From assembly GCA_040754315.1 (NCBI GenBank), contig JBFMCS010000004.1:7390-71389 (forward strand): 64,000 nucleotides of DNA, in the 5' to 3' direction. Each line of letters begins with the position of its first letter. The stretch's first letter is position 1. Shown one piece after another: positions 1,829 to 62,848 of this stretch. Made by a program: the position numbers and the translations under genes. The notes beneath the pieces are model-generated. The model was given only the letters and a program-made list of their open reading frames with translations. It ran no database searches and had not been told where the DNA came from. The DNA is from Bacillota bacterium (GTDB lineage Bacteria > Bacillota > Sulfobacillia > DUSP01 > JBFMCS01).

Positions 1829-1859
1829 GGTGCCACCTCCGAATCTTGTTCTCCCGCCT

Positions 1860-3080: not shown

Positions 3081-3120
3081 TGATCATTACCTCCCTCACG
3101 AACCTTGCCGCTTTGGAATG

Positions 3121-4640: not shown

Positions 4641-4669
4641 CCGTCCCTTCGCCAAGAATCTCTCCTCCT

Positions 4670-13036: not shown

Positions 13037-13525
13037 ATGTCACATCAGTGTGAGTGTCTGGAAACTCTCCTGGAGGAGAGTATCAAGCGGAATGGCCATG
13101 GGTTTGTGTCCATCCTTCAGGACATTCAAGAAGACTGCGGTTACTTGCCCGAGGATGCACTGAGGGCCCTTGCCAGGAAGACAGGGGTTCCCCTGAGTGA
13201 GATCTACCGCACAGCAACCTTCTACAACTACTTCTCACTTGTACCCCGCGGGAAGCACCAGGTAGTCGTATGCACAGGGACGACTTGTCACGTCCGCGGA
13301 GCCAAGCGGGTGTCCAGGGAGATCACAAAGAACCTGGGAATACGCGTGGGCGAGGTGACTGAGGATCGTGAGTTCTCACTAGAGTCTGTAAACTGCCTTG
13401 GATGCTGCGCCTTTGCTCCCGTGGTGGTGGTGGATGGCAGGCACTACGGTAACCTGACTCCTGACGAGGTGAAGAAGGTGTTAGACTCCGTCAAGCGAGA
13501 AGCCGTGACCGTTGGAGCCACATGA
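13037..13525 (+). CDS. NuoE/HydC-like thioredoxin-fold [2Fe-2S] protein (24-kDa subunit homolog)
   Basis: It has the C...C...CxxC pattern (CTGTTCHVRG...CLGCCAFAP) of the NuoE family. Confidence 0.8.
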   Translation: MSHQCECLETLLEESIKRNGHGFVSILQDIQEDCGYLPEDALRALARKTGVPLSEIYRTATFYNYFSLVPRGKHQVVVCTGTTCHVRGAKRVSREITKNLGIRVGEVTEDREFSLESVNCLGCCAFAPVVVVDGRHYGNLTPDEVKKVLDSVKREAVTVGAT

Positions 13526-13539
13526 AAGGAGAACCGTTG

Positions 13540-16500: not shown

Positions 16501-16692
16501 CAGACTCCGCTGGATCGCTATGCTCCAGGGAAGATCCCGTTGAGTGAACGAATCAGGGGCTTCCGGGAGGTAGAAATGGCGTACTCCGAGGAAGTCGCGT
16601 GTAATGAGGCGTCCCGTTGCCTGCGGTGTGACGTGCAGCAAGATGACGAAGAAGAACAAGACAACCGGCACTCTTTGGCGGGAGCATCCTAG
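13540..16692 (+). CDS. Fusion protein: a thioredoxin-like 2Fe-2S domain, the NuoF/HydB (51-kDa) FMN/NADH module, a Cys-rich Fe-S linker, and a GltD/NfnB-like FAD/NAD(P)H pyridine-nucleotide-disulfide oxidoreductase domain
   Basis: The NuoF core carries GGAGFPT, the FMN site and the 4Fe-4S motif ESCGKCFSCRVG. A Cys-rich linker follows (CRATVCESLFRSPCQNSCPAG...VCGRVCHHPCESRC). The GltD-like Rossmann motifs VAVIGAGPAGL and VAVVGGGNAAIDAA come next. An ATG at 13540 after an AAGGAG RBS is the likely start. Confidence 0.8.
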   Translation: MSVTPRRLLAPGDLAELADCLKTRLDTRKPCVTVCGDTGCTVCGSLGLAESFRNIIDKKGLSDKVDLKVTGCLGFCEQAPAVMAMHDEVLYCKVTPDDVEELLEAIIAGKVVDRLVYADPVTGRIIPRARDIPFYSRQTRMLLEANWHTNPVDIYDYIARGGYHALSRVLAGMNPEEVIAMMKEACLRGRGGAGFPTWLKWDIARKQLEKERYMICNADEGDPGAFMDRSILEGNPHALLEGMLIAGFAIGSSNGIIYVRAEYPTAVAKIQHAIQQCQDLGLVGKDILGSGFDFDLTISKGAGAFVCGEETALIRAAEGGVAEPRQKPPYPSESGFKGKPTVINNVETLANVPIIVERGAGAYRSLGTEKSGGTKIFCLVGKVLNAGLIEVSFGTRLGDVIFDIGGGTKKGKRFKAVQTGGPSGGCLPADKLNLHIDFEELALAGSIIGSGGMIIMDEDTCIVDVTRYFLGFLKSESCGKCFSCRVGIERMLEIVDRIAQGRAVESDLDLLEELALTVKDTSLCGLGQTAPNPVLSSLRYFREEYLEHIRHKFCRATVCESLFRSPCQNSCPAGVDVPIYVDQIRHGEFIEAYETVQKNNPFPVVCGRVCHHPCESRCRREQIDKPVAIRALKRFAADYAVSNGQRPARVPGIKSSKKVAVIGAGPAGLTAAFYLGRKGHQVTVFESSPVPGGMLALGIPDYRLPKDSLNADIEAIRNSGVKMRMNSALGRDFTLQDLREDGYEAIFLAIGAHKDRDMGIPGEGLEGVLSSVEFLRAVNLGHQVDVDGKAVAVVGGGNAAIDAARVALRKGARVVHILYRRRQEDMPAMKEEIADALAEGIHLTQLTAPVRILGDDKVRAIECVRMGLGDFDETGRRRPVAEAGTEFHLPVDVVIRAIGQAPDVPDTVRKTVSIAGNGTIAVDSRSLSTQVAGVFAGGDCVTGPAMAIDAIAQGRIAAASIDKYLGGDGVLWGDDEEPVRQFRSEIIQTPLDRYAPGKIPLSERIRGFREVEMAYSEEVACNEASRCLRCDVQQDDEEEQDNRHSLAGAS

Positions 16693-16710
16693 AAGCAGGG
16701 GTGTATTTGA

Positions 16711-17415
16711 ATGCTGGAAATAACGCTGAACGGTCTTAGGGTTGGTGTGGATGAGGGCATGACGATACTGGAGGCAGCTCGGTTCTATGGGATCGAGATA
16801 CCGACCCTCTGTTACCTTGATGGCCTGAGCCCATACGGGGCATGCCGGCTTTGCCTGGTGGAGGTAGGCCCGCCGGAGAGGCCGAGATTAGTCTCATCCT
16901 GCATTCACAGGGTAGAAGAGGGCCTTGTGGTCAGGACGCACTCTGAACGAGTGATGATGAGGAGGAAGATGCTTCTGGAACTGTACCTGGCGACCTGCCC
17001 CTCATCCAAGACCATCCAGGATCTCGCCTCAAAGCATCACGTTACTGAGGTCCGCTTCAAGCCTCGGAACGAGGACTGCATTCTCTGCGGGCTTTGTGTC
17101 AGAATGTGCGCCGAACAGATGCAGGGCAAGGCCATCGATTTTGGTCACCGGGGAGCAGATCGAAGAGTCCTGACGCCGTTTGACAAGAAATCGGAGGATT
17201 GCCGGTTATGCGGTGGTTGCATGTACGTCTGTCCTGCGTGCCAAGCCAGGTGCCAAGGCCCGCAAGAGAGCGAGCCTGTGTGCAATGCCTGTCTCAACCT
17301 GCCTGTGGCATGCCTGGAACGTTTCGAGCATGCCATGTGCTATATGGACCCGTGCGTTGCCTGTGAGAGACAGCCCACAGAGATCGTTACGACCGAAAGG
17401 AGAAGCGACCCATGA
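16711..17415 (+). CDS. NuoG/HndD N-terminal-like Fe-S protein (2Fe-2S ferredoxin fold plus 4Fe-4S motifs). It has no catalytic domain.
   Basis: It has the TLCYLDGLSPYGACRLCLVEV 2Fe-2S motif and downstream CxxCxxC clusters. It is only 234 aa. Confidence 0.7.
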   Translation: MLEITLNGLRVGVDEGMTILEAARFYGIEIPTLCYLDGLSPYGACRLCLVEVGPPERPRLVSSCIHRVEEGLVVRTHSERVMMRRKMLLELYLATCPSSKTIQDLASKHHVTEVRFKPRNEDCILCGLCVRMCAEQMQGKAIDFGHRGADRRVLTPFDKKSEDCRLCGGCMYVCPACQARCQGPQESEPVCNACLNLPVACLERFEHAMCYMDPCVACERQPTEIVTTERRSDP

Positions 17416-18992
17416 GTTTTTCTCGAATCAACGCAAGTGCTGCAAGCCTGACCAAGAATCGCACCGTGGATTCGATCAGTTCTCTTAGCGGCATGTGCGC
17501 CACATGCATAGATGGGTGCATTGGGATGTGCGAGGTGGGCAAGTCCGCCTACCGGGGTCATGAGGTTATATACCCTCAACCGTTTGGGCTTATCAGCACG
17601 GCCTCGGAGAAGAACTACCCCTTGGACTACTCTCACTTCTCCATCATGGGCACCACGGTGGGCGCCGTTGGAGTGGAACCCGACAGCGACAAGGCCATCT
17701 TCCCCTCCGTTAACGTGGAGGCACGCATGGGTAAGGGAGAGGGCATTAAAACCAGGTTGCCTCTGGTTGTCTCGGGAATGGGTTCCACACGTATCGCCAG
17801 TGTCAACTGGGAGGGCCTGGCCATCGGGGCAGCCCTGGCCGGTATCGTTGTCACCATAGGCGAGAACATCTGCGGCATGGACCCCCAGTCCGAGATCCGT
17901 AACGGGAAGGTGGCAAGGAGCCCAGAGCTGGCCAGGCGTGTCCGGCTCTTCAAAGACTGGCAGGTGGACGGCTACGGCGATGTGGTGCTCCAGGCCAATG
18001 TCGAAGACACCAGCCTCGGAGTGCAGGAGTTCGGCATCAGGGAACTCGGCGTGACCAGCGTGGAGCTGAAGTGGGGCCAGGGGGCGAAGGACATCGGTGG
18101 CGAGGTAAAGATCTCCGACCTGGAAAAGGCCAAGATGCTCAAGAGCCGGGGATACGTGGTGCTGCCCGATCCGGAGGATCCCAATGTCATTGAGGGGTTC
18201 AAGCGGGGTGCCTTCAAGGAGTTCGAGCGCCACTCCAGGGTCGGCATGGTTGAGCCTGAGGGCTTCATCAGGCGGGTGCAGGATCTGAGGAAGGCCGGGG
18301 CCAAGTGCGTGCTTCTGAAGACGGGGGCCTTCAGGCCCGCGGATATGGCCCGGGCGGTCAAGTACTGCTCCATGGCGGGGGTGGATGTACTCACGGTGGA
18401 CGGAGCTGGGGGCGGGACAGGAATGAGCCCCTGGCGCATGATGAACGAGTGGGGTGTGCCACCGGTAGAGATGCATTCTCTAGCGCGGGAGTTCTGTGAC
18501 AGGCTGGCGGCAAAGGGCGAGTACGTGCCGCACCTGGTGTTTGGCGGGGGCTTCGTCATGGAGGACCAGATGTTCAAGGGCCTTGCCCTGGGGGCCCCAT
18601 ACGTGAAGGCCATTGGAATGGCCCGGGCGCCACTGGCCGCGGCCATGGTGGGCAAGACAATTGGCAGGAGCATCGACGAGGGCCGTCTCCCCGTGTATGT
18701 TGAACGTTTCGGGAGGTCCAAGGAGGAGGTCTTCGTCACGGCCACGGAGCTGAGGCAGCTAGTGGGCAACGACCGGTTTGCGGAACTCCCTGCGGGTGCC
18801 ATTGGACTCTTCACGTTCTGCGAGAGGCTTTCCCAAGGCCTCAAGCAGCTTATGGCAGGCAGCAGGAAGTTTGCCTTGGAGTACGTGGACCGGTCCGACA
18901 TCGCTGCATTGACCAGGCACGCCAGTGAGGTCAGCGGGATCGACTTCGTCATGGAGGCAGACAGGAACGAGATAGAGGAGATCCTTGGATAA
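17412..18992 (+). CDS. Glutamate-synthase (GltB) FMN-binding central-domain family protein with an N-terminal Cys-rich cluster. This is the stand-alone archaeal-like GltS domain 2.
   Basis: The 526-aa protein has the N-terminal CATCIDGCIGMCEVGK motif. It has the TIM-barrel FMN domain signature of PF01645-type proteins (GAGGGTG, LVFGGG). Confidence 0.75.
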   Translation: MSFSRINASAASLTKNRTVDSISSLSGMCATCIDGCIGMCEVGKSAYRGHEVIYPQPFGLISTASEKNYPLDYSHFSIMGTTVGAVGVEPDSDKAIFPSVNVEARMGKGEGIKTRLPLVVSGMGSTRIASVNWEGLAIGAALAGIVVTIGENICGMDPQSEIRNGKVARSPELARRVRLFKDWQVDGYGDVVLQANVEDTSLGVQEFGIRELGVTSVELKWGQGAKDIGGEVKISDLEKAKMLKSRGYVVLPDPEDPNVIEGFKRGAFKEFERHSRVGMVEPEGFIRRVQDLRKAGAKCVLLKTGAFRPADMARAVKYCSMAGVDVLTVDGAGGGTGMSPWRMMNEWGVPPVEMHSLAREFCDRLAAKGEYVPHLVFGGGFVMEDQMFKGLALGAPYVKAIGMARAPLAAAMVGKTIGRSIDEGRLPVYVERFGRSKEEVFVTATELRQLVGNDRFAELPAGAIGLFTFCERLSQGLKQLMAGSRKFALEYVDRSDIAALTRHASEVSGIDFVMEADRNEIEEILG

Positions 18993-50605: not shown

Positions 50606-51814
50606 TCACTTGGACCGGAAGCGGATTATCCTCAGGCCCCTCAAGGTCGAAAACCCCAGGCAGAAGATGAAGAGCCCTGCGGTGACCAAGAGGAACAGCA
50701 GGCCAGCCTCGCGGACGGTCTCCAGCCACGACACAGGAGCTACTCCCAGCCAGCGAGAGACCGGGAGGGACACGCCCAGGACGCCCCAGAGGATCCAAGT
50801 GTAGAGGGCTGCAAGGACAGCGTGAAACAACCGGGCCAGGATGTAGGGTTTGAGGTCAATACCGGTGCCCTGGACCATGGCGGCCACCTGGGCGTGGACC
50901 GAGAGCCCGCTCCAGGCGATGATGGCACTGGCTATCATGGCCCGGTCCATGAGGGGCGCCTGCGCCTGGCTGGCTGCCTGGGTGCCTATGGTAATCTCGA
51001 AAAACCCCTTGACCATCGCCTCGCACATGTCTGCATCAAGACCCAGGGGTACAAGGATATGGCCAAAAACACTGCCAAGGGCGCCCACGGCACCCGCCAG
51101 GGTGAGGATCCGGAGGACCACTGAGAACAGTATGATGAAGCCCCCTATGACCAGGAGGGTCTGTACGGAGTTCTTCACTGCGTCCCCCATGAGCTGGCCC
51201 AGGGGCCTGCCGTCCTTCTCCCGGGCGTCTCGCATTGCCCTGAGGGCCCTCAGGAGTAGCCAGCCCTTCCCCCTAGGGTTGGGGGTGCACTCCTCCATGG
51301 GCTTGTAGTACTTCAGCACAAGTCCCACACTGAGGCTGGACAGGTAGTGCGCGGCCATGATGCTACCGGAGAGCCCAGGCAGCCCGAACATTCCAACGGC
51401 CACTGCCCCTGACATAAAGAGGGGATCGGCAGTGTTCGTGAAACTTACCAGGCGCTCAGCCTCGTACTTGTTGCACAGCCCCTGCCGCCGGATCCTGGCG
51501 GTGAGAACCGAGCCGATGGGGTACCCAGATGCCAATCCCATGGCCATCACGAAGGAGCCGGTGCCGGGCACGTTGAAGAGAGGCCTCATGAGGGGCTCCA
51601 GGAGCACCCCCATGAAGTGGACTACCCCGAGCCCCATGAGGATCTCTGCCCCTATGAAGAAGGGGAGGAGCGCCGGGAACACGATGTCCCACCACACCTT
51701 TAGACCCTCCGTAGCCGACCGGAACGCGGGTTCAGGGTAGAGCACCATGAAGACAGTCAAGGCGAGGGCGAGGGCCGCAGGCATGTACACGCTGCCAGGG
51801 TTTAGCCGTCCCAA
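50606..51814 (-). CDS. ylbJ: Sporulation integral membrane protein YlbJ
   Basis: It is multi-TM with YlbJ-family similarity and sits at the conserved position opposite coaD. Confidence 0.85.
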   Translation of the reverse strand: MGRLNPGSVYMPAALALALTVFMVLYPEPAFRSATEGLKVWWDIVFPALLPFFIGAEILMGLGVVHFMGVLLEPLMRPLFNVPGTGSFVMAMGLASGYPIGSVLTARIRRQGLCNKYEAERLVSFTNTADPLFMSGAVAVGMFGLPGLSGSIMAAHYLSSLSVGLVLKYYKPMEECTPNPRGKGWLLLRALRAMRDAREKDGRPLGQLMGDAVKNSVQTLLVIGGFIILFSVVLRILTLAGAVGALGSVFGHILVPLGLDADMCEAMVKGFFEITIGTQAASQAQAPLMDRAMIASAIIAWSGLSVHAQVAAMVQGTGIDLKPYILARLFHAVLAALYTWILWGVLGVSLPVSRWLGVAPVSWLETVREAGLLFLLVTAGLFIFCLGFSTLRGLRIIRFRSK

Positions 51815-51984
51815 GTCCGTACCCCCTAGGAATGTAGTGCGGCCTCGTGTTCCCGGTATACGGCGGGGCTTTCCATGAGCGCCTGCTACAGTACCGGGAT
51901 GCTAAGACCCAATTACATGATATGGCGGGGTTCCGGGGATATAACCCGCGCGGGGAGAGGGCCGGGTTTTTGCAGGTAAAAGCC

Positions 51985-52015
51985 CCGGGGTGGTGCCCGG
52001 GGCCTTTGAGGGGTT
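51985..52015 (-). terminator. Terminator hairpin (gccccgggg tggtg ccccggggc) followed by a T-run on the minus strand, downstream of the dehydrogenase gene
   Basis: It has a perfect 9-bp stem. On the minus strand it is followed by ttttacctgcaaaaa. Confidence 0.4.
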
Positions 52016-52026
52016 CCGGAAGGGAA

Positions 52027-53178
52027 TCAGCCCTGGGCTTCGCCCAGGCGCCTGAGGGCATTTACCACAGCGTTCCCCATCTCTGAGGTAGAGGCACTTC
52101 CCCCAAGGTCTCTGGTGCGCACTATTCCCTCCTCCAGGACGGAGACTACCGCCCTTTCCAGGAGGTCTGCCCAGGTGTCCTCGCCCAGGTCTTCAAGAAG
52201 GAGCTGCCCCGATAGGATGGTGGCCAGGGGATTAATGATCCCTTGCCCCTTGTACTTTGGAGCGGAGCCGTGGATAGGTTCAAACATGGATACACCGTTG
52301 GGGTTGATGTTCCCCCCGGGCGCCAGGCCCAAGCCCCCCTGGATCATGGCCCCGAGGTCCGTTATGATGTCCCCGAACATGTTGGGGGTGATCACCACCT
52401 GGAATTGTTCGGGGTTCTTCACAAGCCACATTGTCATGGCATCCACGTAGTTGAACTCGTAAGATATGGACTGGTATTCCGAGGATACGTCCTGGAACAC
52501 CTCCCTCCAGAGGCCGTAGATGTCCGAGAGCACGTTGGCCTTGTCCACCGATGTGACCCTGTCCAGGCCCTTGCGCTGGGCAAGCTGGAAGCCATAGCGA
52601 ATGACCCGCTCTGCCCCTGCCCGGCTGATGAGGCCGATCTGGTAGGCGTAGTCCCCGGCTACATCCGACTCAAAGGCCACGTTGAAGGCGGCCCGGTAGT
52701 TGCTCCTGTCCACGGGTAACCGGGCGCTGCCAGCGGCCCCTCGAACCCTGTCCCCGATGCCTATGTAGAAGTCCTCAGTGTTCTCCCTGATCACGTAGAA
52801 GTTGATGTCACCGGGGCCCTTGTCCCTGAGGGGGGTGGGCACGTTAGGGTAGAGTTTTACAGGGCGGAGGTTGATGTACTGGTCAAGCCCAAACCTGAGA
52901 TTCAGGAGCATGCCGCCCTCCAGCACCCCGGGCTTTACCCTGGGGTCGCCTATGGCACCCAGGAGGATGGCATCGAAGCCGCCGAGCTCGTGGATGATGC
53001 CCGGAGGCAGGATTTCCTTGGTCTTCAGGTAGTGCTCCGCACCGAAGGGGTAGTGGGTCCACCTGAAGGTGATGGAGGCCATGGGTGCGATGGTCTCGAG
53101 GACCTTGAGGGCCTCCGTCACGATCTCGGGTCCCACGCCGTCTCCAGGAATGACCGCTATGTTGTATTCCTTACCCAA
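52027..53178 (-). CDS. Isocitrate/isopropylmalate-dehydrogenase-family NAD(P)-dependent beta-decarboxylating dehydrogenase (tartrate/3-IPM dehydrogenase-like)
   Basis: It has the IPGDGVGPEI N-terminus, a substrate/metal-binding Asp cluster, and the GSAPKYKGQ-like NAD site. It starts with TTG after a GAGAGGAG RBS. Confidence 0.8.
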   Translation of the reverse strand: MGKEYNIAVIPGDGVGPEIVTEALKVLETIAPMASITFRWTHYPFGAEHYLKTKEILPPGIIHELGGFDAILLGAIGDPRVKPGVLEGGMLLNLRFGLDQYINLRPVKLYPNVPTPLRDKGPGDINFYVIRENTEDFYIGIGDRVRGAAGSARLPVDRSNYRAAFNVAFESDVAGDYAYQIGLISRAGAERVIRYGFQLAQRKGLDRVTSVDKANVLSDIYGLWREVFQDVSSEYQSISYEFNYVDAMTMWLVKNPEQFQVVITPNMFGDIITDLGAMIQGGLGLAPGGNINPNGVSMFEPIHGSAPKYKGQGIINPLATILSGQLLLEDLGEDTWADLLERAVVSVLEEGIVRTRDLGGSASTSEMGNAVVNALRRLGEAQG

Positions 53179-53339
53179 GTCCAGGTTCTCCTCTCGCTCC
53201 CCTAACGGGGTTCGTTAATGTGACGGATAACCTTCTACACAGGCTGCCCAGGTTCCTCTTGTCGTAGACCTAGGTTCCGGGTGAGCGACAGGAGGATTCC
53301 GGTGCCGGGCGGAGAAGGAATGGACTGACAAACCCATAC

Positions 53340-53556
53340 TCTCCGAGCCTGCCTCTCCTAAGGGGTCATCTACGGGAGACAGGCCGTGCCAGCCCCATGG
53401 CTGGCAAACGGTAGGCTGGGAAACCTGCCTGCCCCCCATCGTGGAAAGGAGGCGTCTCTATGAGGAGAAGGCCAGGATCCGGAGCGGTGGTTCTGGCCGA
53501 TCGCGTTTTTTCGGGAAGGATGTCCGGGCAGACCATGGTGAAAGGAGAAGACCATT
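53340..53556 (+). promoter_or_regulatory. Structured leader upstream of tupA with a terminator-like hairpin and U-run (ggccag...ctggcc gatcgcg ttttttc). It is a candidate Moco/Wco-type riboswitch or attenuator, with class unassigned.
   Basis: The GC-rich leader and hairpin plus T6 lie about 40 nt before the tupA RBS. Tungstate/molybdate transporter genes are often controlled by Moco-family riboswitches. Confidence 0.2.
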
Positions 53557-54414
53557 TTGAAAGCGATTAGATCAGTGGCCCTTCTGTTAGTACTGCTCAT
53601 GATGCTGAACCTGGTGGGCTGCGGCAGTCCCCAGGTGACGGAGGAACCCTCTACAGAAGACCCGGCGCAGCCAGAGGCTGTCGAGGTGACGTCGTTTATC
53701 CTGGCGACCACCACCAGCACTCTAGACACTGGCCTTCTTGATGTGCTCAACGCCGCCTTTGAGGAGGAATTCCCGCAGTACCAGGTGAAAGCCATTGCGG
53801 TGGGGACAGGGGAGGCCCTGAAGATGGGCGAGCGCAAGGAGGCGGATGTGGTCCTGGTACATTCGCGGGCGGCTGAGGACAAGTTCGTCGAGGCCGGTTA
53901 TGGTTTTGACCGGCGGGATGTGATGTATAACGACTACGTCTTGGTAGGGCCCGGAGAGGATCCCGCAGGGATAAAGGGGATGGACTCCGCGGAGGCCTTC
54001 AAGACCATCGCGGCCCAAGGGGCTGTCTTCTTGTCCAGAGGGGACGACTCCGGCACCCACAAGAAGGAGATGTCCATCTGGTCCAAGGCCGGGGTAGAGC
54101 CAGGCGGGCAGTGGTATTTCGTCTCAGGGCAGGGGATGGGGGCCACCCTCCAGATAGCTGACGAGAAACGAGGGTACACCCTCTCGGACCGCGGCACCTT
54201 CCTGGCCAGTTCCAATCTGGGCCTTGTGGTCCTGGTGGAAAAGGAGCCGGCTCTCCTGAATCCCTACGGGGTGATCCAGGTCACAGGGGCCAAGAATGCT
54301 GAGGGAGCCCTGGCATACGCGGGCTTCATCACCTCTCCCGCGGGCCAGGCCATAATCGCCGAGTTCGGTAAGGACAAGTACGGGCAGCCCCTGTTCTTCC
54401 CGGACGCAGAGTAG
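53557..54414 (+). CDS. tupA: Tungstate ABC transporter substrate-binding lipoprotein
   Basis: It has a lipobox (LVGC) and the TupA-family TTTSTxDTGLLD motif. It starts with TTG after an AAAGGAGAAG RBS. Confidence 0.8.
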   Translation: MKAIRSVALLLVLLMMLNLVGCGSPQVTEEPSTEDPAQPEAVEVTSFILATTTSTLDTGLLDVLNAAFEEEFPQYQVKAIAVGTGEALKMGERKEADVVLVHSRAAEDKFVEAGYGFDRRDVMYNDYVLVGPGEDPAGIKGMDSAEAFKTIAAQGAVFLSRGDDSGTHKKEMSIWSKAGVEPGGQWYFVSGQGMGATLQIADEKRGYTLSDRGTFLASSNLGLVVLVEKEPALLNPYGVIQVTGAKNAEGALAYAGFITSPAGQAIIAEFGKDKYGQPLFFPDAE

Positions 54415-54433
54415 CTGTAGCAGGAGGTTACCG

Positions 54434-55153
54434 ATGGACCTGTTGTGGCAGGGCTTTAAAGAGGCAATAAGATTAGTGATGACCCTGGACCCGGAGGTAA
54501 TGGGGGTTACCCTCCTTTCCCTGAGGGTGTCCGGGCTGGCTACCCTCATCTCCCTGGTGCTGGGAATGCCCCTGGGGGTCTTCCTGGCCCTCAGGGAGTT
54601 CAGGGGGCGGCACCTGGCGCTGGGCGCCGTTAACACCGGCATGGGGCTTCCCCCTGTGGTGGTTGGGCTCTTCGTTGTGCTCTTCCTTTGGAGGAGTGGC
54701 CCCCTGGGTTTTCTGGAGCTCCTCTACACGCCCACGGCTATGGTCATCGCCCAGGTGGTTATCGCCTTTCCCATTGTAGCAGGCCTTACCGCCGCCGCCA
54801 TACAGCAGCTGGATCCCCGCATTGGGCTCCAGGCCAAGGCCCTGGGGGCCTCGGGATTCCAGACAGTCATGACCCTGGTCATGGAGGCGCGCCTACCACT
54901 CTTGGCCGCTGTCATGGCCGGCTTTGGGGGGGTGATCTCAGAGGTTGGGGCGGTGATGATGGTAGGGGGCAACCTGAAGGGAATAACCAGGGTACTCACC
55001 ACCGCCACGGTGATGGAGGTGAGGATGGGCCGTTTTGCCACGGCTATCGCTCTCGGGCTCATCCTACTGGGATTGACCTTCGCGGTGAACCTGGGCCTCA
55101 CCATGCTGCAACAGGGAAGGAGAAGGCAATGGAGCCACCGGCCATCAAGGTAA
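54434..55153 (+). CDS. tupB: Tungstate ABC transporter permease
   Basis: It has 5-6 TM helices and an EAA-like loop, and follows tupA. Confidence 0.8.
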   Translation: MDLLWQGFKEAIRLVMTLDPEVMGVTLLSLRVSGLATLISLVLGMPLGVFLALREFRGRHLALGAVNTGMGLPPVVVGLFVVLFLWRSGPLGFLELLYTPTAMVIAQVVIAFPIVAGLTAAAIQQLDPRIGLQAKALGASGFQTVMTLVMEARLPLLAAVMAGFGGVISEVGAVMMVGGNLKGITRVLTTATVMEVRMGRFATAIALGLILLGLTFAVNLGLTMLQQGRRRQWSHRPSR

Positions 55154-56211
55154 CCCAGCTGGAACAGCGATATGGTGACAAGGTGGCTGTATGCGTGCCC
55201 CATCTTGAGGTAAGCCGCGGGGAGGTCCTGGTTATCCTGGGCCCCAACGGTTCGGGCAAGAGCACTCTCCTGAGGGTGCTGGGACTCCTGGAGCGTCCCT
55301 TCCGGGGCAGTGTGGCCTACAGAGGGAGGGTGCCAGTAACCCAGAAGGAGTGCCTGGACCAGAGAAGGCGCATGGCCATGGTCTTCCAGGACCCCCTCCT
55401 GTTCAAGGGCAGCGTCTTCCGGAATGTCTCCTATGGCCTGCGGGTCAGGGGCATTGACGCCGGGGCAAGCCGCCAGGGAGTCAAGGGCGCCCTGGACCTC
55501 CTGGGCATTGGTCACCTGGAGGATAGGCCGGTGGACACCCTCTCCGGTGGTGAGGCACAGAGGGTGGCACTGGCCCGGGCGCTGGCTGTCAAGCCGGAGG
55601 TGTTCTTCCTGGACGAACCCACGGCGTACCTGGACGCTCCCGCAAAGGAGGCCTTTGTGAAGGACCTGAGGGGGCTCCTGGACAGGCTGGGCCTTACGGC
55701 CCTCTTCGTGACCCACGACCGGTCAGAGGCGCTGGCCCTGGGAGCCCGGGTCGCGGTTCTGGAGGCAGGCCACCTGAGGCAGGCAGGGAATGCTCTAGAG
55801 GTGTTCCGGCGCCCGGCCACCCTGTCCCTGGCGGCATTCCTCGGCGCGGAGGTGGTGGGATCCGGGCGTGTCCAGAGGGATGGCTCCAGGTGGCTGGTCA
55901 AGGCGAACGGAGGCGCTATCACGGTGAACTCTGGGGAAGGATATGAGGGAGAGGTGGACCTGGTGATGAGGCCAGAGGACGTGAACCTCTCCCGCGAGGG
56001 GAGTCACGAGCCTGGACTGAACGCCCTTACAGGCCTGGTATCGGAGATCGTCCCGTCTGGCCACGCCTACCGGGTTACCCTGGACTGCGGCTTCCGGGTC
56101 CGGGGTTACCTGACGGGATACCAGATTCGGTGCTGGCAGGTATCGGTAGGGAATTCACTGACTGCCAGCTTCTACCCAGATGCCGTCCACCTCATTCCCA
56201 GAAGTTCCTGA
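55129..56211 (+). CDS. tupC: Tungstate ABC transporter ATP-binding protein with a C-terminal TOBE-like extension
   Basis: It has Walker A (GPNGSGKST), the signature LSGGEAQRV and Walker B (FFLDEP). The ATG at 55129 overlaps the tupB end. Confidence 0.8.
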   Translation: MEPPAIKVTQLEQRYGDKVAVCVPHLEVSRGEVLVILGPNGSGKSTLLRVLGLLERPFRGSVAYRGRVPVTQKECLDQRRRMAMVFQDPLLFKGSVFRNVSYGLRVRGIDAGASRQGVKGALDLLGIGHLEDRPVDTLSGGEAQRVALARALAVKPEVFFLDEPTAYLDAPAKEAFVKDLRGLLDRLGLTALFVTHDRSEALALGARVAVLEAGHLRQAGNALEVFRRPATLSLAAFLGAEVVGSGRVQRDGSRWLVKANGGAITVNSGEGYEGEVDLVMRPEDVNLSREGSHEPGLNALTGLVSEIVPSGHAYRVTLDCGFRVRGYLTGYQIRCWQVSVGNSLTASFYPDAVHLIPRSS

Positions 56212-56224
56212 AGGGGGTGATGGC

Positions 56225-56431
56225 GTGAAGGTAAGTGGGAGGAACAAACTCTCCGGTATGGTCCAGAGCATCAAGAGGGATGGGATCCTAGCCCAGGTGA
56301 CCGTGGCTGTGCCCGGCCCCGGTACCGTTGTGGCCACCATAACAGGGGATGCCGTGGATGACCTGGGACTGAAGGAAGGCGATTCCGTGCAGGCCCTGGT
56401 GAAGGCCACTAACGTTATGATAATGAAGTAA
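56225..56431 (+). CDS. mop: Mop/TOBE-domain molybdate/tungstate-binding small protein
   Basis: The ~68-aa protein (VKVSGRNKLSGMV...) has a single TOBE fold pattern. It starts with GTG after an AAGGGGGTG RBS. Confidence 0.65.
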   Translation: MKVSGRNKLSGMVQSIKRDGILAQVTVAVPGPGTVVATITGDAVDDLGLKEGDSVQALVKATNVMIMK

Positions 56432-56624
56432 GACCCCCGTAGCCTGTACGACGGCACCTGGTGGAGGGATGCCGCCTCCCGCGTGGAATAGGTAGTGCGG
56501 GGGCGGCATTCGTCTACCAAGGCCCTGGCGGTCCCGGCACACAGGATTGCGCCATCGCCGGAGGTCTCAAGGGCAGGTCTTGAGCGAGTGGGCCGCCAAT
56601 CGATGACAGGGGAGGACTTGACTG

Positions 56625-58058
56625 ATGAAGGAAGCGTTCCCAGTGATGAGGTTCTTGTCTGACGAGGATCTGGGTGTGATCTACGCTGCCAGCCTGAGGA
56701 TCCTGGAGGGCACCGGCATGGTGATCAAGTCCCGCCGGGCTCTGGAACTGCTAGGAAACGCAGGCTGTGCCCAGAGGGACGGGAGGATCATGATCCCACC
56801 TAGACTGGTGGAGTGGGCCATGGAGAAGGCCCCATCCACCGTGACCCTCCATGACCGCGAGGGCCGTCCCTCAGTCCTGCTGGAGGGGAGAACCTCTTAC
56901 TTCGGGACGGGATCGGACTGTCCCAATATACTGGATCACCAGACCGGCGAGCGCCGTCCCTTCACCAAGGATGATGTATCCCGGGGGATGCGTGTGTGTG
57001 AGGCCTTGCCCAACATCGACTTCGTCATGTCCATGGGCCTCATCTCCGATGTGCCCAGGTGGTCCTCGGACAGGCACCAGTTCCAGGTGATGCTTACCTG
57101 GACGAGGAAGCCCGTGGTGTTCACCGCCCATGACCTTGAGGGCTGCCGGGACATAGTTGAGATGGCCGCTATGGCGGCCAATGGAGTGGCTCACCTGTAT
57201 AGATACCCTCAGTTAGTTCTGTACTCGGAACCCACGTCACCCCTGGTCCATTCGGAGCCGGCCCTTGACAAGCTCCTCTACATGGCTAGCCTGGGGCTCC
57301 CTACGGTCTATTCCCCTGGCATGATGCCGGGCGCGACGGCCCCAGTGACGGCTGCCGGGGCTCTCGCCCTGGCCACCGCTGAGGCCCTCGTGGGCATCGT
57401 GCTGGGACAACTGGAGAGGGAGGGCGCCCCCTTCATTTTTGGCGCCGGTATTAGTCCCATGGACATGAGGACCAGCGTGTGTTCCTACGCATCCCCGGAA
57501 TTCATGAGAAACCAGGTAGGGGTAGCTGAGATGGCTCGATACCTGGGCCTTCCATCCTGGGGCTACGCGGGCTGCAGCGACGCCAAGGTGCCTGACCAGC
57601 AGGCTGCCCTGGAATCGGGAATGTGGGCCGTCATGACCTGCATGATGGGGGCCAACCTGGTGCATGACGTGGGGTACCTGGAATCAGGGCTCACGGGATC
57701 CCTGGAGATGCTGGTCTTAAACGATGAGGCCATCGGCGCGGCCCGCAGGATAGCGCAGGGGATAGGGGTGGACGAGGAGTCCCTGGCGGTGGAGGCCGTT
57801 CACCGTGTGGGCCCCGGGGGGCAGTTTCTCACGGACGAGCATACCCTTGCCCACTTCAGGGAGGACTGGGTCCCGGGCCTTCTTGACAGGCAAAACCACA
57901 TGGCGTGGCAAGCCTCCGGCCAGAAGACCCTGAGAGATAGAGCCAAGGAGCGGGTGGAGGAGATCCTCCGGAGGGACCTAGCCCCGGTCATCCCTGAGGA
58001 TGTGGCCATGGAAATCGAGGGCATGGTGAAGCGGGCCGATGGCAGCCGGATGAACTAG
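56625..58058 (+). CDS. MttB-superfamily methyltransferase, full length and without an in-frame amber codon (non-pyrrolysine type, MtgB-like)
   Basis: The 477-aa protein has MttB-family similarity over its whole length (LSDEDLGVIYAASLRILE N-terminus). There is no TAG interruption. Confidence 0.75.
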   Translation: MKEAFPVMRFLSDEDLGVIYAASLRILEGTGMVIKSRRALELLGNAGCAQRDGRIMIPPRLVEWAMEKAPSTVTLHDREGRPSVLLEGRTSYFGTGSDCPNILDHQTGERRPFTKDDVSRGMRVCEALPNIDFVMSMGLISDVPRWSSDRHQFQVMLTWTRKPVVFTAHDLEGCRDIVEMAAMAANGVAHLYRYPQLVLYSEPTSPLVHSEPALDKLLYMASLGLPTVYSPGMMPGATAPVTAAGALALATAEALVGIVLGQLEREGAPFIFGAGISPMDMRTSVCSYASPEFMRNQVGVAEMARYLGLPSWGYAGCSDAKVPDQQAALESGMWAVMTCMMGANLVHDVGYLESGLTGSLEMLVLNDEAIGAARRIAQGIGVDEESLAVEAVHRVGPGGQFLTDEHTLAHFREDWVPGLLDRQNHMAWQASGQKTLRDRAKERVEEILRRDLAPVIPEDVAMEIEGMVKRADGSRMN

Positions 58059-58076
58059 GAGTGGAGGGATCCGCCC

Positions 58077-58742
58077 TTGGCATTGATTACCATTACGGCT
58101 GGGGACCGGGAGACCGCCAGGGTGGTAGCAGGGCGGGTCTCGAGGCGGATGGGCCTGGACCTGCTGGAGGAGCCCTGGGAAGGGGCTGTGAGCGGTGTCC
58201 TGCCCATGACGCCGGGAGGCCCTGCGGTGCCGCCAGACCTCAGTGTTGCCCTGGCGCCACTGGGACAAGGGGAGGCCTCCTACCACATGACCCTGGATCT
58301 GGAACGCCTGGGCCCCTCCGGGTGCGCCGACGCCATTGTGGCGGTGGCTGCCAGCCTGGGGCTGGCCAGAAAGAGGAAACGGGGCCTTACCCGTTCTCGG
58401 AGAACCCGGTTTGCCCACGCAAGCGAGAGGGAGTTCGCCGGGATACTGGACTTCTACGGGATCCATTACATGTACGAGCCCCACACATTCCCCCTGGCTT
58501 GGGATGAGGAAGGCCGCGTCACCATGGCGTTTACCCCCGACTTCTATCTTCCGGAATATGACCTGTACCTGGAATTGACCACGCTCAAGCAGGGACTGGT
58601 CTCAAAGAAGAATAGGAAGATCCGCCTTCTGGGGGAGATTTACCCGGAGGTCCAGCTGAAGGTTCTATACGGCAAGGACTACAAGAGGCTGCTTGAGAGG
58701 TGGGGTTTTGTTGATGAGGAGGAGAATCAATACCCCAAGTGA
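58077..58742 (+). CDS. Hypothetical protein
   Basis: The 221-aa ORF has no confident domain. Its N-terminus resembles a nucleotide-kinase-like fold without an intact P-loop. Confidence 0.35.
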   Translation: MALITITAGDRETARVVAGRVSRRMGLDLLEEPWEGAVSGVLPMTPGGPAVPPDLSVALAPLGQGEASYHMTLDLERLGPSGCADAIVAVAASLGLARKRKRGLTRSRRTRFAHASEREFAGILDFYGIHYMYEPHTFPLAWDEEGRVTMAFTPDFYLPEYDLYLELTTLKQGLVSKKNRKIRLLGEIYPEVQLKVLYGKDYKRLLERWGFVDEEENQYPK

Positions 58743-59148
58743 CCTTTTTGGGGTTCCTCGCCCGGACCCGTTCAGGCTTTATGCTTGCGGGCCTGCCCTC
58801 CCCGAGTGCGGCTTTCGCCGGCACTCCGGTGCGCTGACCTTTAAGCGGCCTCCCGGAACCTGGGCGGGTTTGTCCGGCTATTCCTCGGGCTTACCGGCCC
58901 TAGGCCTTTTCCGGTCTCGACCTTCCGGTCGTCCAGGAAAAGACTTGCGGCTCGACCCGCCCTCCGACTCCGGCTCTTACGGGGCCCAGGGCTCCCGGCC
59001 CGTCCACCCCATCCCGGCTTTCACCGGGTGGCTTGGACTCACCTTGACCCTGAGGCTCCGTTCCCTCGACCACTTGGGGTAATCACAGAATACTATGGAA
59101 CGCGGCGCAAGTCAATACTTTTTATGCTGGAAATTAGTGTTAAGGGGG

Positions 59149-59736
59149 ATGACAGTGTACCAGGACATTAGGGAGGTAGTATTTACGCAGGGTGATATCA
59201 GGGCTGCGGTGGCCCGCCTGGGAATCCAGATATCTCGGGACTACCAGGATAGGGATCTGGTGCTAGTGAGTGTCCTCAGGGGCGGCGCCTTCTTCGTGAC
59301 GGATCTGGCCCGGGCCATCCCTGCCTACCTCTCCCTGGACTTTATGGCCATCTCACGCTACGGGCCCAGGGCTAGGGGGGAGAAGGGAGTACGCATCCTC
59401 AAGGACCTGGACGAGGACATCTTGGGGAAGGATGTCATCTTGGTTGAGGACATCATCGACACGGGACTCACCTGTGCCTACCTGGTACGTATCCTCAACG
59501 AGCGCTCCCCCCGGAGCCTTAAGGTATGCTGCCTCTTGGACCGGCGCGAGCGGAGGCTTGTGAACCTGCCCTTGGCCTATGTGGGGTTCAAGGTGTCCGA
59601 TGCCTTCCTGGTAGGGTACGGGCTGGACTACAGGGAGATGTACCGCAACCTTCCCTTCATCGGGCTTCTCACCGACGGGGCCCGGGAGAGGCTCTCTCCC
59701 TCCAGTACCACGCCTACAGGTCAAGGGAGTCGATAG
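59149..59736 (+). CDS. hpt: Hypoxanthine-guanine phosphoribosyltransferase
   Basis: It has the PRPP-binding motif VILVEDIIDTGLT and Hpt-family similarity. The ATG is at 59149 after an AAGGGGGA RBS. Confidence 0.85.
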   Translation: MTVYQDIREVVFTQGDIRAAVARLGIQISRDYQDRDLVLVSVLRGGAFFVTDLARAIPAYLSLDFMAISRYGPRARGEKGVRILKDLDEDILGKDVILVEDIIDTGLTCAYLVRILNERSPRSLKVCCLLDRRERRLVNLPLAYVGFKVSDAFLVGYGLDYREMYRNLPFIGLLTDGARERLSPSSTTPTGQGSR

Positions 59737-60640
59737 CCTCTCTCAGGAGACGGGAAGAGTGCCGGAAGGCCTCGGCCTCCTCAGGTGCGAGGGGCAGCCG
59801 GATGATCTTCTCAATGCCCCCTGAGCCCACCACTGCCGGGACGCTAGTGCAGACCTCGTCGATCCCTTCATAGTCCCTGATCAGCGATGATACGGTCAGC
59901 ACCGTCCGGTTATCCCCTATGATCGTTTCCACGATCCTGGCCAGCGCTATGGCTATGGCATAGTACGTGGCGCCCTTTCTGCGGATGATCTCATATGCCG
60001 AGGTCCTGACTCCCTCGAAGATGGCTCCCATCTCCTCCTCGTCGTGACCGGGGAAGTCCCTGAGTCTCATGCCCGCGATGTTGGCCAGACTCCACACAGG
60101 AAGTTCCGTATCCCCGTGTTCCCCAATGATATAGGCGTGGATGCTGCGGGGGTCCACCCTGAAGTGCTCACCCAGGGCGTGGCGCAACCTTGAGGTGTCC
60201 AAGAGCGTGCCGGAGCCTATCACCCTCCTGGGTGGGAAGCCGGACAGGCGCCAGGCAACGTAGGTGAGGACATCCACGGGGTTAGTGGCCACCAGCAGGA
60301 CGCACTGCCTGTTGTTCCCGGTCACACTCCTGATCACGGAGCGAAACACCTCTGTGTTCCTCTTCAGGAGGTCCAAACGTGTCTCTCCGGGTCGCTGGCT
60401 CACCCCGGCAGCAATGACCACGACCTGCGCCCCGTCCAGATCCTGGTACCCACCGCTCTTGACCTGCACAGGGTGGGCCAGGGGCACAGCATGGCTGATG
60501 TCCATGGCTTGTCCCGCGGCCTTGTCGGGATCAATGTCCACCAGGACCACCTCGCTGGCCACCCCGGTGAGTACCATGGTATAGGCGAAAGTAGACCCTA
60601 CCAGGCCTGTGCCGACTATGCCAACCTTTCCTTGGGTCAA
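59714..60640 (-). CDS. ldh: L-lactate dehydrogenase
   Basis: It has the GIVGTGLVGS Rossmann motif and the active-site His/Arg regions of L-LDH. Confidence 0.9.
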   Translation of the reverse strand: MTQGKVGIVGTGLVGSTFAYTMVLTGVASEVVLVDIDPDKAAGQAMDISHAVPLAHPVQVKSGGYQDLDGAQVVVIAAGVSQRPGETRLDLLKRNTEVFRSVIRSVTGNNRQCVLLVATNPVDVLTYVAWRLSGFPPRRVIGSGTLLDTSRLRHALGEHFRVDPRSIHAYIIGEHGDTELPVWSLANIAGMRLRDFPGHDEEEMGAIFEGVRTSAYEIIRRKGATYYAIAIALARIVETIIGDNRTVLTVSSLIRDYEGIDEVCTSVPAVVGSGGIEKIIRLPLAPEEAEAFRHSSRLLREAIDSLDL

Positions 60641-60764
60641 CTCAATACCTCCGGCGGTTCGATGGCATTAGGGTTTCCCTTATCCTCGCCCGCTAGTACG
60701 TCCGGGCTGGAGGAATTGGCGGCCCTAGGGGGGAATCAGGGGTAGGTGAAAGGAGGCAAGGTTC

Positions 60765-61811
60765 TTGACCGTTTCCGGGTCAGGCTTGGGAGTCACAGTG
60801 AGAAGGTTGCGCCGGTTCCTCATCACCGTCATTACCGGTGGCCTTGTGCTGGCCGCCCTCTACTACCTTCCCACAGGGTATGTGCTGGTGTCACCTGGGC
60901 CTGTGAGGGATCTCTCCCAAGTGATAAAGGTTACAGGGGGTGCCGCGGACTCCTCAGGGCGGGTACTCCTTACCACCATCAACTCCCGGGATGCGGGGCC
61001 CCTTCTCTACCTGTACGGGATGGTGAACCCCAAGGCTGACCTGACGCCTCAGAGTGCCGTGGTCCCCCCGGGGCAAGACAGGGACGAGTACTGGGAGTAC
61101 CAGCGGCGCCTCATGGAGGAGAGCCAGGCCGCAGCGAAGGTTGCGGCCCTGGCCTACCTTGGCTACGAGGCAAGCCTGGTGGGGACGGGGGTCATGGTGA
61201 TGGATCTCTTGCCCTCTTCTCCTTCCGAGGGGCTTCTCAAGCCCGGCGACCTCATCACAATGGTGGACGGTGTGACTGTGAATATCGCCGGGGACCTCCT
61301 TGACTACATGGCCAGGAAGACGCCGGGGGAACCTGTTCGCCTGGAGATAAGCCGGGCCGGCGAGACCAGGACCCTGGAGGTTCCCACCGAGGCCCATCCC
61401 TCAGAGGGACGGGCCATCATGGGAGTCCTGGTGACCACAGCAGGCTTCGACGCCGAGATACCCTTGGAGATCCACATCGAGATCCAGGGCATCACCGGAC
61501 CCTCAGCCGGCCTCATGTTTTCCCTGGAAATAGTCAACCAGCTTAGCCCCGGTGACCTCACCAGGGGTATGACCGTGGCGGGAACCGGCACCATCACCGG
61601 CAACGGTGTGGTGGGTCCCGTTGGGGGAGTGCGCCAGAAGGTGTTCGCTGCCGAGAGGGAGGGGGCCGAGGTATTCCTGGTGCCTGTGGAAAACTTCACG
61701 GAGGCAATATCGGCGGCCTCCCGTGTCAGGGTGGTGCCCGTGACCTCCCTGGCCGAGGCCCTCCAGGCCCTTAGGGAATCCGGGCTGGAGACCGGGGAGC
61801 CCCCGGATTGA
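60765..61811 (+). CDS. ylbL: YlbL-like PDZ-domain plus Lon-protease-like (S16) membrane-anchored protein
   Basis: It has an N-terminal TM segment, a PDZ domain, and a Lon_C-like domain with the Ser region (GPSAG). It follows ylbJ synteny. Confidence 0.85.
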   Translation: MTVSGSGLGVTVRRLRRFLITVITGGLVLAALYYLPTGYVLVSPGPVRDLSQVIKVTGGAADSSGRVLLTTINSRDAGPLLYLYGMVNPKADLTPQSAVVPPGQDRDEYWEYQRRLMEESQAAAKVAALAYLGYEASLVGTGVMVMDLLPSSPSEGLLKPGDLITMVDGVTVNIAGDLLDYMARKTPGEPVRLEISRAGETRTLEVPTEAHPSEGRAIMGVLVTTAGFDAEIPLEIHIEIQGITGPSAGLMFSLEIVNQLSPGDLTRGMTVAGTGTITGNGVVGPVGGVRQKVFAAEREGAEVFLVPVENFTEAISAASRVRVVPVTSLAEALQALRESGLETGEPPD

Positions 61812-61901
61812 GGGTGAGGCACGCCCTCGGCCCAAGCTGCAACCTCCTGTATCATCCTCTCCACTCACGACATGGCGTAGGCGAAGGCCCTGGCAGGCGA
61901 A

Positions 61902-62848
61902 ATGGCCGTCCTGCTCCGGGGGAGAATCGTTGCCACCTGTACCCTGCGGGATATCACCGCAGCCGGGGCGGGGTTGACTAAGATCACCGTGCGTACCTCG
62001 GGTTCGAGCCTGGAAGGGAACACCCTCCCGGCAGCAGCCCGGGAGGGCTGGGTGGAGGGGTATCACGTCTACTACTCCACCAAGACCGGGTCAACGGTGG
62101 CCGCCATCATCAGCAAGGTAGAGACAGCCGGGGATAGTTCCTGGATCTGCGCCTGGAACGCCCGTCCCTGGAAGAGAGATTCCTGGAACTTACCACACAG
62201 GGGGGGTGCTCTAAATGAACGCTTTTGCCGGGCACTTCTCCTTCGAGTTCTTCCCGGCCTGCGAAACAGGAACCATCTGCTCCTCAACTACCTATTGCCC
62301 CTAGGCTTCTAAGCTATGATGGGCCTGGTTATGACGGGGCTCAATCCATTCTTCACGGAAACCATGCTCCCCGCGATGCTGGTGTTCACCGTGCTCTCCG
62401 GTGGCATCCTGGGGCTCCCCGGTCCCTGGTGGAGGCACGCGAGGGAGGAGCCCTGCGCAGCTACAAGATCAACGGGGTGCCTCAATCCTGTCCATTCCCG
62501 CCATGGCTACATGCATCCACCTGGTCATCGCTGCCACGGCCGGGTCCCTCTTCGGGGCGCCGCTGCCCGCTGGATGGCCCGCCCTGGTCCTGAATCTACC
62601 TGGCACTCCTTTTCTCCTGCAGCGGCCTGGGGGTGCTCATCGGCGTCATTTCCTCCAGCAGCCAGTCGACGGTACTGTGGTCCCAGATGGTATACGTGGC
62701 CTCGATGCTTCTTAGCGGCATGATGGTTCCAGGCCACCTGACGCCCGGCGCCCTGCAGAAGGCGACTCGCCTGCTGCCGGGAACCTATGCCATGGAGGCC
62801 ATCAAGGGGCTCGGTTTGGACGGATCCGGCGGCAAAGGAAAAGTTTGA
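61902..62848 (+). pseudogene. Decayed ABC-2-type transporter. It holds a C-terminal fragment of an ABC ATPase followed by a frameshifted permease.
   Basis: One frame gives LDLRLERPSLEERFLELTTQGG (an ATPase C-terminal motif). Permease pieces (MMGLVMTGLNPFF..., LRSYKINGVP, ...LLPGTYAMEAIKGL) are spread over three frames. Confidence 0.4.

Follow-up and report, generated by a model that had tools for sequence, protein, structure and literature searches.

An expanded ylbJ-ylbL interval in an uncultured Bacillota lineage: a probable vertically inherited patchwork with a P3-bearing riboswitch before tupABC and a candidate structured RNA gene

The TupABC tungstate uptake system of Eubacterium acidaminophilum is linked to the small protein Mop. 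Riboswitches of the Rfam family RF01055, which comprises sensors of the molybdenum cofactor (Moco) and the tungsten cofactor (Tuco), were found associated only with Moco genes when they carry the P3 hairpin and with tungsten when they lack it (Regulski et al., PMC2408646). This rule rests on a correlation across 176 sequences, and deletion of P3 from the Escherichia coli RNA abolished regulation and did not switch its specificity (PMC2408646). A study of Eubacterium limosum takes the absence of P3 as confirming tungsten dependence, including that of its tupABC leader (PMC11725836). The present analysis concerns the interval between ylbJ and ylbL in a 64,000-nucleotide stretch of a Bacillota bacterium (assembly GCA_040754315.1, contig JBFMCS010000004.1), hereafter the window, whose numbering is used throughout. 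This interval holds a tupABC-mop operon preceded by a P3-bearing RF01055 RNA, as well as the gene hyp221 and the phosphoribosyltransferase gene hpt. With a probability of roughly 0.7, it is a slot that was filled over time with unrelated transcription units and is now inherited vertically, not a mobile island, in which the tup operon would be riboswitch-controlled and the products of hyp221 and hpt would be partners. The best explanation thus includes a patchwork handed down within one uncultured, high-GC, spore-forming Bacillota lineage.

The first-pass annotation of the window had placed nine protein genes of mixed orientation in this 8.95-kb interval, a layout that is borne out by domain and family matches. 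Besides these genes, the interval has a riboswitch and, on the opposite strand, a candidate RNA gene, both non-coding. The features are, from left to right:

50606-51814, minus strand: ylbJ, sporulation integral membrane protein, left anchor (TIGR02871, 324.2 bits, cut-off 304.65)
52027-53178, minus strand: LeuB-like beta-decarboxylating dehydrogenase gene, Iso_dh (PF00180, E = 8e-97; NF002898, 400.9 bits, cut-off 393)
53329-53467, plus strand: predicted Moco/Tuco riboswitch aptamer RF01055 with P3 hairpin, in the tupABC-mop leader (57.3 bits, gathering score 36, E = 4e-11)
53470-53556, plus strand: putative expression platform, with the hairpin GGCCAG...CUGGCC, a run of six U, the Shine-Dalgarno sequence GAAAGGAGA and the TTG start
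53557-54414, plus strand: tupA, periplasmic tungstate-binding protein (solved structures 3LR1 and 5MY5; NF041772 TupA)
54434-55153, plus strand: tupB, ATP-binding cassette (ABC) permease (PF00528; NF038017, 261.6 bits, cut-off 100)
55129-56211, plus strand: tupC, ABC ATPase with a C-terminal TOBE_2 domain (PF00005, E = 1e-32; PF08402)
56225-56431, plus strand: mop, 68-residue molbindin, cytoplasmic tungstate/molybdate-binding protein (PF03459 TOBE, E = 5e-15)
56625-58058, plus strand: MttB-superfamily methyltransferase, non-pyrrolysine (PF06253, E = 2e-97, full length)
58077-58742, plus strand: hyp221, 221-residue 'hypothetical' protein (no Pfam or NCBIfam match)
58732-59080, minus strand: candidate structured non-coding RNA gene of 349 nt, with a 13-bp closing helix and three long arms
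59087-59115, minus strand: sigma-70-type promoter TTGACT-17-TATTCT of the candidate RNA (promoter scan)
59149-59736, plus strand: hpt, hypoxanthine phosphoribosyltransferase (TIGR01203, 188 bits, cut-off 150)
59714-60640, minus strand: ldh, L-lactate dehydrogenase (TIGR01771, 383 bits, cut-off 303.55)
60765-61811, plus strand: ylbL, protease with PDZ and Lon-like (Lon_C) domains, right anchor (PF13180 and PF05362)

YlbJ homologues were aligned, 80 loci with ylbJ were fetched from GTDB species representatives of the Bacillota, and the window proteins were placed in these loci by tblastn. The view that ylbJ and ylbL are usually close neighbours, also put forward in the first-pass annotation, held: ylbL lies divergently upstream of ylbJ in 36 of the 80 loci, at gaps of 108-298 bp (14 loci), 0.87-1.06 kb (19) or about 1.6-1.7 kb (3). 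In none of these 36 linked loci did tblastn detect any of the nine genes in the gap, and ylbL is not upstream of ylbJ in 23 further loci that have at least 9 kb of upstream sequence. The linkage is common, not universal; the interval of the window is unusually long, and this enlargement is confined to its lineage. Among the GTDB species representatives, a genome scan found no YlbJ above 66% identity to that of the window, and a look-up of the exact YlbJ sequence gave no match. Three relatives were drawn from metagenome assemblies. The first, L165 (JGI 3300045950), belongs to the same species as the window, with 97.7% nucleotide identity across 14.8 kb; the second, L166, is about 87% identical to the window in nucleotides and comes from the same sample as a further locus, L001; the third, L002, is more distant (YlbJ identity to the window orthologue 98% in L165, 91% in L001 and 77% in L002).

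The interval had been proposed to be a 9-kb inserted island. The part of this proposal that stood is the expansion restricted to one lineage; the idea of a single 9-kb insertion did not. The order of the nine genes in L165 is identical to that of the window, and L166, an independent assembly, likewise has the dehydrogenase gene, riboswitch, tupABC, mop, the MttB-family gene, hyp221, hpt and ldh in this order. Between window and L166, the genes of the block share 82-94% amino-acid identity and the flanking genes 86-95%, the block having kept pace with its flanks in divergence. In L002, the only protein genes between ylbJ and ylbL are the dehydrogenase gene (74% identical), a PAS-PAS-MCP chemoreceptor gene and ldh (82%), accompanied by the RNA element; the chemoreceptor gene occupies the place of the tup genes through hyp221, hpt is absent, and the similarity between window and L002 ends at the coding-region limits of the four shared genes. 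Since the dehydrogenase gene and ldh are common to L002, both end genes are older residents, and the variable part is confined to about 53.2-59.7 kb. The composition of the interval is native: its GC content is 0.62 against 0.61 for the window, its tetranucleotide correlation of 0.98 compares with 0.97 on average in the window, a dinucleotide signature (delta*) that deviates as much or more is seen in 14% of segments of equal size, and GC at third codon positions, 0.71-0.78, is like that of the flanks. No integrase or transposase domain was found among the interval genes in Pfam and NCBIfam scans, no tRNA in the whole 64-kb window, and only short flanking repeats of chance size in a repeat search. 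A foreign 9-kb piece acquired horizontally as one genomic island would fit the size of the interval (8.95 kb against 0.1-1.7 kb in the 36 other Bacillota loci), its mixed functions and orientations, and the lack of the middle part from L002. The end genes common to L002, the native composition and third-position GC, the missing integrase, transposase, tRNA and flanking repeat, and the equal divergence of block and flanks between window and L166 all speak against it, and this explanation is largely refuted and highly improbable.

The preferred reading is therefore a layered slot. Its older layer would consist of the LeuB-like dehydrogenase gene beside ylbJ, ldh beside ylbL and the roughly 350-nt RNA gene, and its variable middle (53.2-59.7 kb), present in L165 and L166 and absent from L002, would consist of the riboswitch-tupABC-mop unit, the MttB-family gene with hyp221 starting 19 bp further on, and hpt.

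Two of the genes in this middle part appear to belong together. The conserved portion of the hyp221 product is its C-terminal domain of about 105 residues, termed the X domain here (residues 107-211; window 58395-58709), which follows a variable N-terminal part. A total of 1629 homologues of the X domain were found, which are 57-69% identical across phyla and in which the domain stands by itself or is joined to either Cytidylate_kin2 or a phosphoribosyltransferase (PRTase); profile scans gave it no Pfam or NCBIfam family. The 'hpt' product of Thermomicrobium roseum (WP_012643103.1, on NC_011961.1) is a 333-residue protein made of an X domain followed by Hpt, which are 57% (E = 2e-41) and 54% (E = 1e-58) identical to the respective window sequences. 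In L174 and L177, a PRTase gene stands immediately after the X-domain gene. The fusion in T. roseum and the adjacency in these two loci therefore point to hyp221 and hpt as a functional pair, and, as part of the best explanation, the X-domain protein and Hpt probably work together. The domain shows weak matches to PD-(D/E)xK nucleases (T7 endonuclease I 3CAE, E = 0.002; phrog_9019, E = 3e-7; a PADLOC profile, E = 9e-4), with D155 and E166 invariant and T, not K, at position +2 after E166. The C-terminal domain of the predicted hyp221 model has a pLDDT of about 90, and a fold search with this model gave nothing significant (best Foldseek E = 0.07), several nucleases being among the weak matches. 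PADLOC returned no defence-system match for hpt or the MttB-family gene and a marginal one for hyp221, and a scan of viral contigs did not find the X domain. The N-terminal part of the hyp221 product was considered as a decayed cytidylate-kinase-like domain and this was rejected, as BLASTP against a cytidylate kinase-X fusion aligns only from residue 76. Fusions of the X domain to cytidylate-kinase-like domains were seen in Acidobacteriota, a copy of the domain lies in L181 (3989-4300), and stand-alone copies are often named 'hypoxanthine phosphoribosyltransferase' by JGI.

The spacer that separates hyp221 from hpt may hold a gene of its own. This 406-nt spacer is 90.1% identical between window and L166, compared with 79-82% for other spacers, and exceeds every coding segment compared. 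The candidate RNA within it is conserved in L165, L166 and L002, where the copy lies between ldh and the chemoreceptor gene (nhmmer E = 7e-9) and retains both promoter hexamers unchanged around 16 diverged bases. The predicted start at 59080 is the first base of the 13-bp helix, which is closed with the 3' end at 58732 and is kept in L002. The minimum free energy of the predicted fold is -185.6 kcal/mol, with a z-score of -6.2 to -6.3 (-5.1 for the L002 copy), against z-scores that average -0.29 and never fall below -2.44 in 62 background segments of the window. Ten pairs are changed on both sides, compared with 3.1 +/- 1.5 after shuffling and 2-5 in slid controls, a covariation signal of modest support that rests on four sequences from three species. 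Both open reading frames (ORFs) crossing the region are disrupted by a 2-nt indel in L166. The region thus combines a promoter of its own, a stable fold on one strand, pairs kept through sequence changes and no conserved ORF, and 58732-59080 on the minus strand is accordingly proposed as a candidate structured non-coding RNA gene. No Rfam family matched it even at E <= 10, and a covariance model of its central arm found no more copies in 2.35 Mb of loci, nor in L177. In L177, a locus of a distant bacterium, the spacer between the X-domain and PRTase genes (4655-4981, minus strand) also folds stably, and only on its minus strand (z = -6.6, the plus strand giving -0.1), has a TTGACA-17-TAATAT promoter of its own and ends at the stop codon of the X-domain gene; no sequence similarity to the window RNA is detectable.

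The tupABC-mop operon is of the known tungstate uptake kind. Among solved structures, TupA matches two TupA proteins best, 3LR1 (E = 7e-66) and 5MY5 (E = 5e-57); its top four matches, each of them TupA-type or a near relative among binding proteins, are 3LR1, 3MUQ, 5MY5 and 3KN3, of which 3MUQ and 3KN3 were deposited as uncharacterised, and the sole other structure matched is 3CVG, a putative metal-binding protein (6e-10). At E <= 1e-3, the solved structures matched included no chain of ModA, PstS or Sbp. Residues 50-55 of TupA (ATTTST) align with TTTST of 3LR1; TTTS near the N-terminus of TupA proteins is the anion-binding motif. By structures, motif and NCBIfam profile, the protein groups with TupA and not with phosphate, sulfate or molybdate binders, in agreement with the first-pass assignment, and tupA is, as judged from such matches, a genuine TupA-type gene. 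The genes follow in the order A-B-C, with a gap of 19 bp between tupA and tupB and an overlap of 25 bp between tupB and tupC, the start of tupC having been set from the L165 gene call and tblastn. The best NCBIfam match of tupC is WtpC (240 bits, below the cut-off). Mop is a single TOBE domain that matches the molbindin structures 1H9J, 1GUG and 1FR3, and its gene also follows tupC in L165 and L166. In a more distant locus, L167, tupABC stands at another chromosomal site, after spoIVA and hup, with a TupA that is 72% identical to that of the window. As the same P3-bearing leader and tupABC recur elsewhere in L167, the operon is a self-contained module.

Regulation responsive to tungsten or molybdenum had been suggested as a thing to look for, and a pterin-cofactor riboswitch is indeed predicted before tupA. 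The RF01055 match spans the full model (1-135) and ends 90 nt before the TTG start of tupA; it is the only RF01055 copy in the 64 kb, and the Rfam scan found no second family there. At 95.7% identity between window and L166, the riboswitch is the best-conserved segment of the interval. The P3 of the window is a stem of 8 bp (UGCCAGCC/GGCUGGCA), a form that also stands upstream of tupA in L165, L166 and L167 (9813-9948 in the last), and in L167 the stem covaries. Three other sampled tupA leaders (L178, L179 and L180, with TupA 56-63% identical) carry RF01055 without P3, and two of these three sit among moa/moe genes. The lack of P3, which is taken to define the Tuco subclass, is thus not seen in the window RNA, and the P3-bearing RNAs predicted before tupABC are an exception to the published Moco/Tuco rule: either P3 is an unreliable discriminator, or the window transporter is controlled by Moco. 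Downstream of the aptamer, the hairpin of the putative expression platform is kept in L167; its folding in the window is not distinctive (z = -1.0), a terminator scan called no terminator there, and the data favour neither a terminator nor a mechanism that hides the ribosome-binding site. The RNA would bind a metal-pterin cofactor and turn the operon off when the cofactor is plentiful, so that oxyanion uptake and cytoplasmic buffering by Mop would track cofactor demand.

The transporter had also been proposed as the supplier of an aldehyde:ferredoxin oxidoreductase (AOR) encoded near the other end of the window:

4670-6517, minus strand: AOR, presumed tungsten consumer (AFOR_N, E = 5e-75; AFOR_C, E = 6e-120)

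The presence of both AFOR domains and a best structure match to the tungsten AOR of Pyrococcus furiosus (1AOR, 389 bits; next 8C0Z, 327 bits) places the enzyme, as had been supposed, in the tungsten-enzyme clade. The AOR gene lies 47 kb from the tup locus and has no riboswitch of its own, the sole RF01055 in the 64 kb being the one before tupA. A supply of tungsten by the tup operon to AOR is plausible because a tungsten-type enzyme needs tungstate, which would end up in tungstopterin enzymes such as this one. AOR seems to head a minus-strand operon (window 929-6517), which further contains the gene of a 267-residue protein without a Pfam family, which overlaps the AOR stop, and genes for an Asp/Glu-racemase-like protein, an iron alcohol dehydrogenase and a protein of the dihydrodipicolinate synthase (DHDPS) family.

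Several points weigh against the preferred reading of a slot filled over time around a tungstate operon. With a single relative of intermediate distance, a gain by the window lineage and a loss from L002 are not told apart, and the split of the hyp221-hpt pair by an RNA gene that is also in L002 fits loss from L002 better than two gains. These two points lead to the alternative that the full arrangement is ancestral to the clade, that L002 lost tupABC-mop-mttB-hyp221 and hpt and received the chemoreceptor gene in their place, and that the window preserves the old state. The conservation of the hyp221-hpt pair elsewhere, fused or adjacent, argues for this alternative, as does the position of the window pair astride the RNA gene kept by L002, two gains on either side being less likely than two losses; the lack of an outgroup example, with 0 of the 80 loci carrying the block between ylbJ and ylbL, and the reliance on a single intermediate relative count against it. 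It is a serious contender, at somewhat less than even odds. The assignment of the operon meets a further difficulty in that TupA scores 207.6 bits on NF041772, its sole NCBIfam match, below the equivalog cut-off of 400, and TupB 166.4 bits on NF041773, below the cut-off of 320. Falling below these cut-offs, both are therefore, by their profile scores, divergent members of their families.

A further alternative is that the transporter serves mainly molybdenum, or both metals: the P3 riboswitch would sense Moco, TupABC-Mop would import whichever oxyanion is available, and the link to AOR would be incidental. TupA proteins also bind molybdate, and the Mop match 1FR3 was deposited as a molybdate/tungstate-binding protein, both of which count in its favour; against it, TupA proteins strongly prefer tungstate and the 64 kb showed no pterin enzyme other than a tungsten-type AOR. 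Also on its side is P3 itself, which is present in the window and absent from the three other tupA leaders; by the published rule it predicts sensing of Moco and not of the tungsten cofactor (PMC2408646, PMC11725836), and this weakens a purely tungsten reading. The force of that signature is limited by the correlative basis of the rule in 176 sequences and by the E. coli P3 deletion, which caused no specificity switch (PMC2408646). On balance, service of molybdenum or of both metals is possible and rather doubtful. Comparably tentative is a more far-reaching proposal, namely that the hyp221-hpt spacer encodes a new class of roughly 350-nt antisense RNA that may work with the X-domain/Hpt pair and that, separately, the P3-bearing tupABC riboswitch would demonstrate that sensors of Moco and of the tungsten cofactor are not told apart by P3.

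The remaining genes of the interval comprise the two end genes and the methyltransferase gene. The best solved structure for the Iso_dh product is LeuB of Mycobacterium tuberculosis (1W0D), and in three loci, L007, L011 and L027, homologues with an identity of about 60% are encoded behind leuC/leuD-like genes; judging from these relationships, the gene may be the organism's leuB. When metagenomes were scanned with the dehydrogenase, no relative exceeded 64% identity; among the relatives found, one (L005) is syntenic with coaD and none with ylbJ. The order in L005 (7474-12064) is coaD, a p170-like gene, a 317-residue ORF, the dehydrogenase gene (64%) and a 307-residue ORF, with ylbJ not detected; the two unannotated ORFs resemble fabK and fabD by eye only. 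This order hints at an older association of the dehydrogenase with the coaD neighbourhood. The MttB-family protein covers positions 25-494 of the 500 of PF06253 in an uninterrupted ORF of 477 codons without an in-frame UAG, and it is therefore not a pyrrolysine-type MttB. It scores 370 bits on TIGR02369, below the cut-off of 525, and lies about as far (about 190 bits) from MttB 7XCL as from the glycine-betaine enzymes 2QNE and 9YCE. Pfam found no B12-binding domain in any of the nine genes, and the interval holds neither a corrinoid partner nor a second methyltransferase. At the right end, the convergent hpt and ldh overlap by 23 bp at their 3' ends (59714-59736). The overlapping tail of hpt is conserved in L166, which ruled out its interpretation as a recent insertion scar.

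Other observations lie outside the interval. Past ylbL (window 61817-62811, compared with L165 18219-19923), a stretch of 723 nt in L165 corresponds to 35 nt in the window, which lacks the 5' part of an ABC ATPase gene, and the remainder is 87.7% identical to L165 as against 97.7% elsewhere; the leftover ORFs at 61902-62312 and 62316-62723 have no Pfam match, and the locus looks like a decaying or exchanged transporter locus. In L001 (3299-5109), a group II intron (RVT_1 and GIIM) lies between rsmD and gpr, where the window has a spacer of about 290 bp without the intron. The window further encodes a 1056-residue fusion of NuoF-like, 4Fe-4S and pyridine-nucleotide-disulfide-oxidoreductase parts within 13522-18992 on the plus strand, followed two genes on by a protein with a glutamate-synthase domain, a region unrelated to the interval.

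Taken by itself, the interval represents ordinary genome plasticity and a standard tungstate operon, of use mainly in annotating an uncultured, thermophile-like Bacillota lineage. Its by-products are worth more: the P3-bearing tupABC riboswitch, the X-domain/Hpt pair and the candidate RNA with its clean promoter signature. The predicted P3-bearing RF01055 RNAs before tupABC in the window, L165, L166 and the more distant L167 contradict a rule that is still used for telling Moco from tungsten-cofactor riboswitches. The X domain would be a highly conserved domain without a Pfam or NCBIfam family, a Rosetta-stone partner to Hpt across several phyla that 'hpt' annotations have silently taken in.

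Comparison with known systems places each part of the interval. The tup operon resembles the TupABC and Mop system of E. acidaminophilum (its tup genes are cited in PMC2408646) in its TTTS-bearing TupA, permease, ATPase and small molbindin alongside; in the window, the ATPase bears a TOBE domain of its own, the operon is led by RF01055 and the metal selectivity is a prediction. The non-pyrrolysine MttB enzymes 2QNE and 9YCE share a full-length MTTB domain and the lack of a UAG codon with the window gene, which differs in having no corrinoid protein or second methyltransferase gene nearby. The T. roseum protein WP_012643103.1 joins in one polypeptide what the window encodes in two genes about 406 bp apart, with an RNA gene on the opposite strand between them. 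The E. coli moaA Moco riboswitch (PMC2408646) belongs to the same family, has P3 and is a cofactor-responsive OFF switch; it controls cofactor biosynthesis and its ribosome-binding site is hidden inside P1, whereas the window RNA would control a transporter whose start codon lies 90 nt past the aptamer. A further likeness is to the Tuco riboswitch-tupABC arrangement of E. limosum (PMC11725836), where RF01055 also stands directly before tupABC in a member of the Bacillota with tungsten aldehyde oxidoreductases; the E. limosum RNAs lack P3, whereas those of the window (with its 8-bp stem), L165, L166 and L167 carry it.

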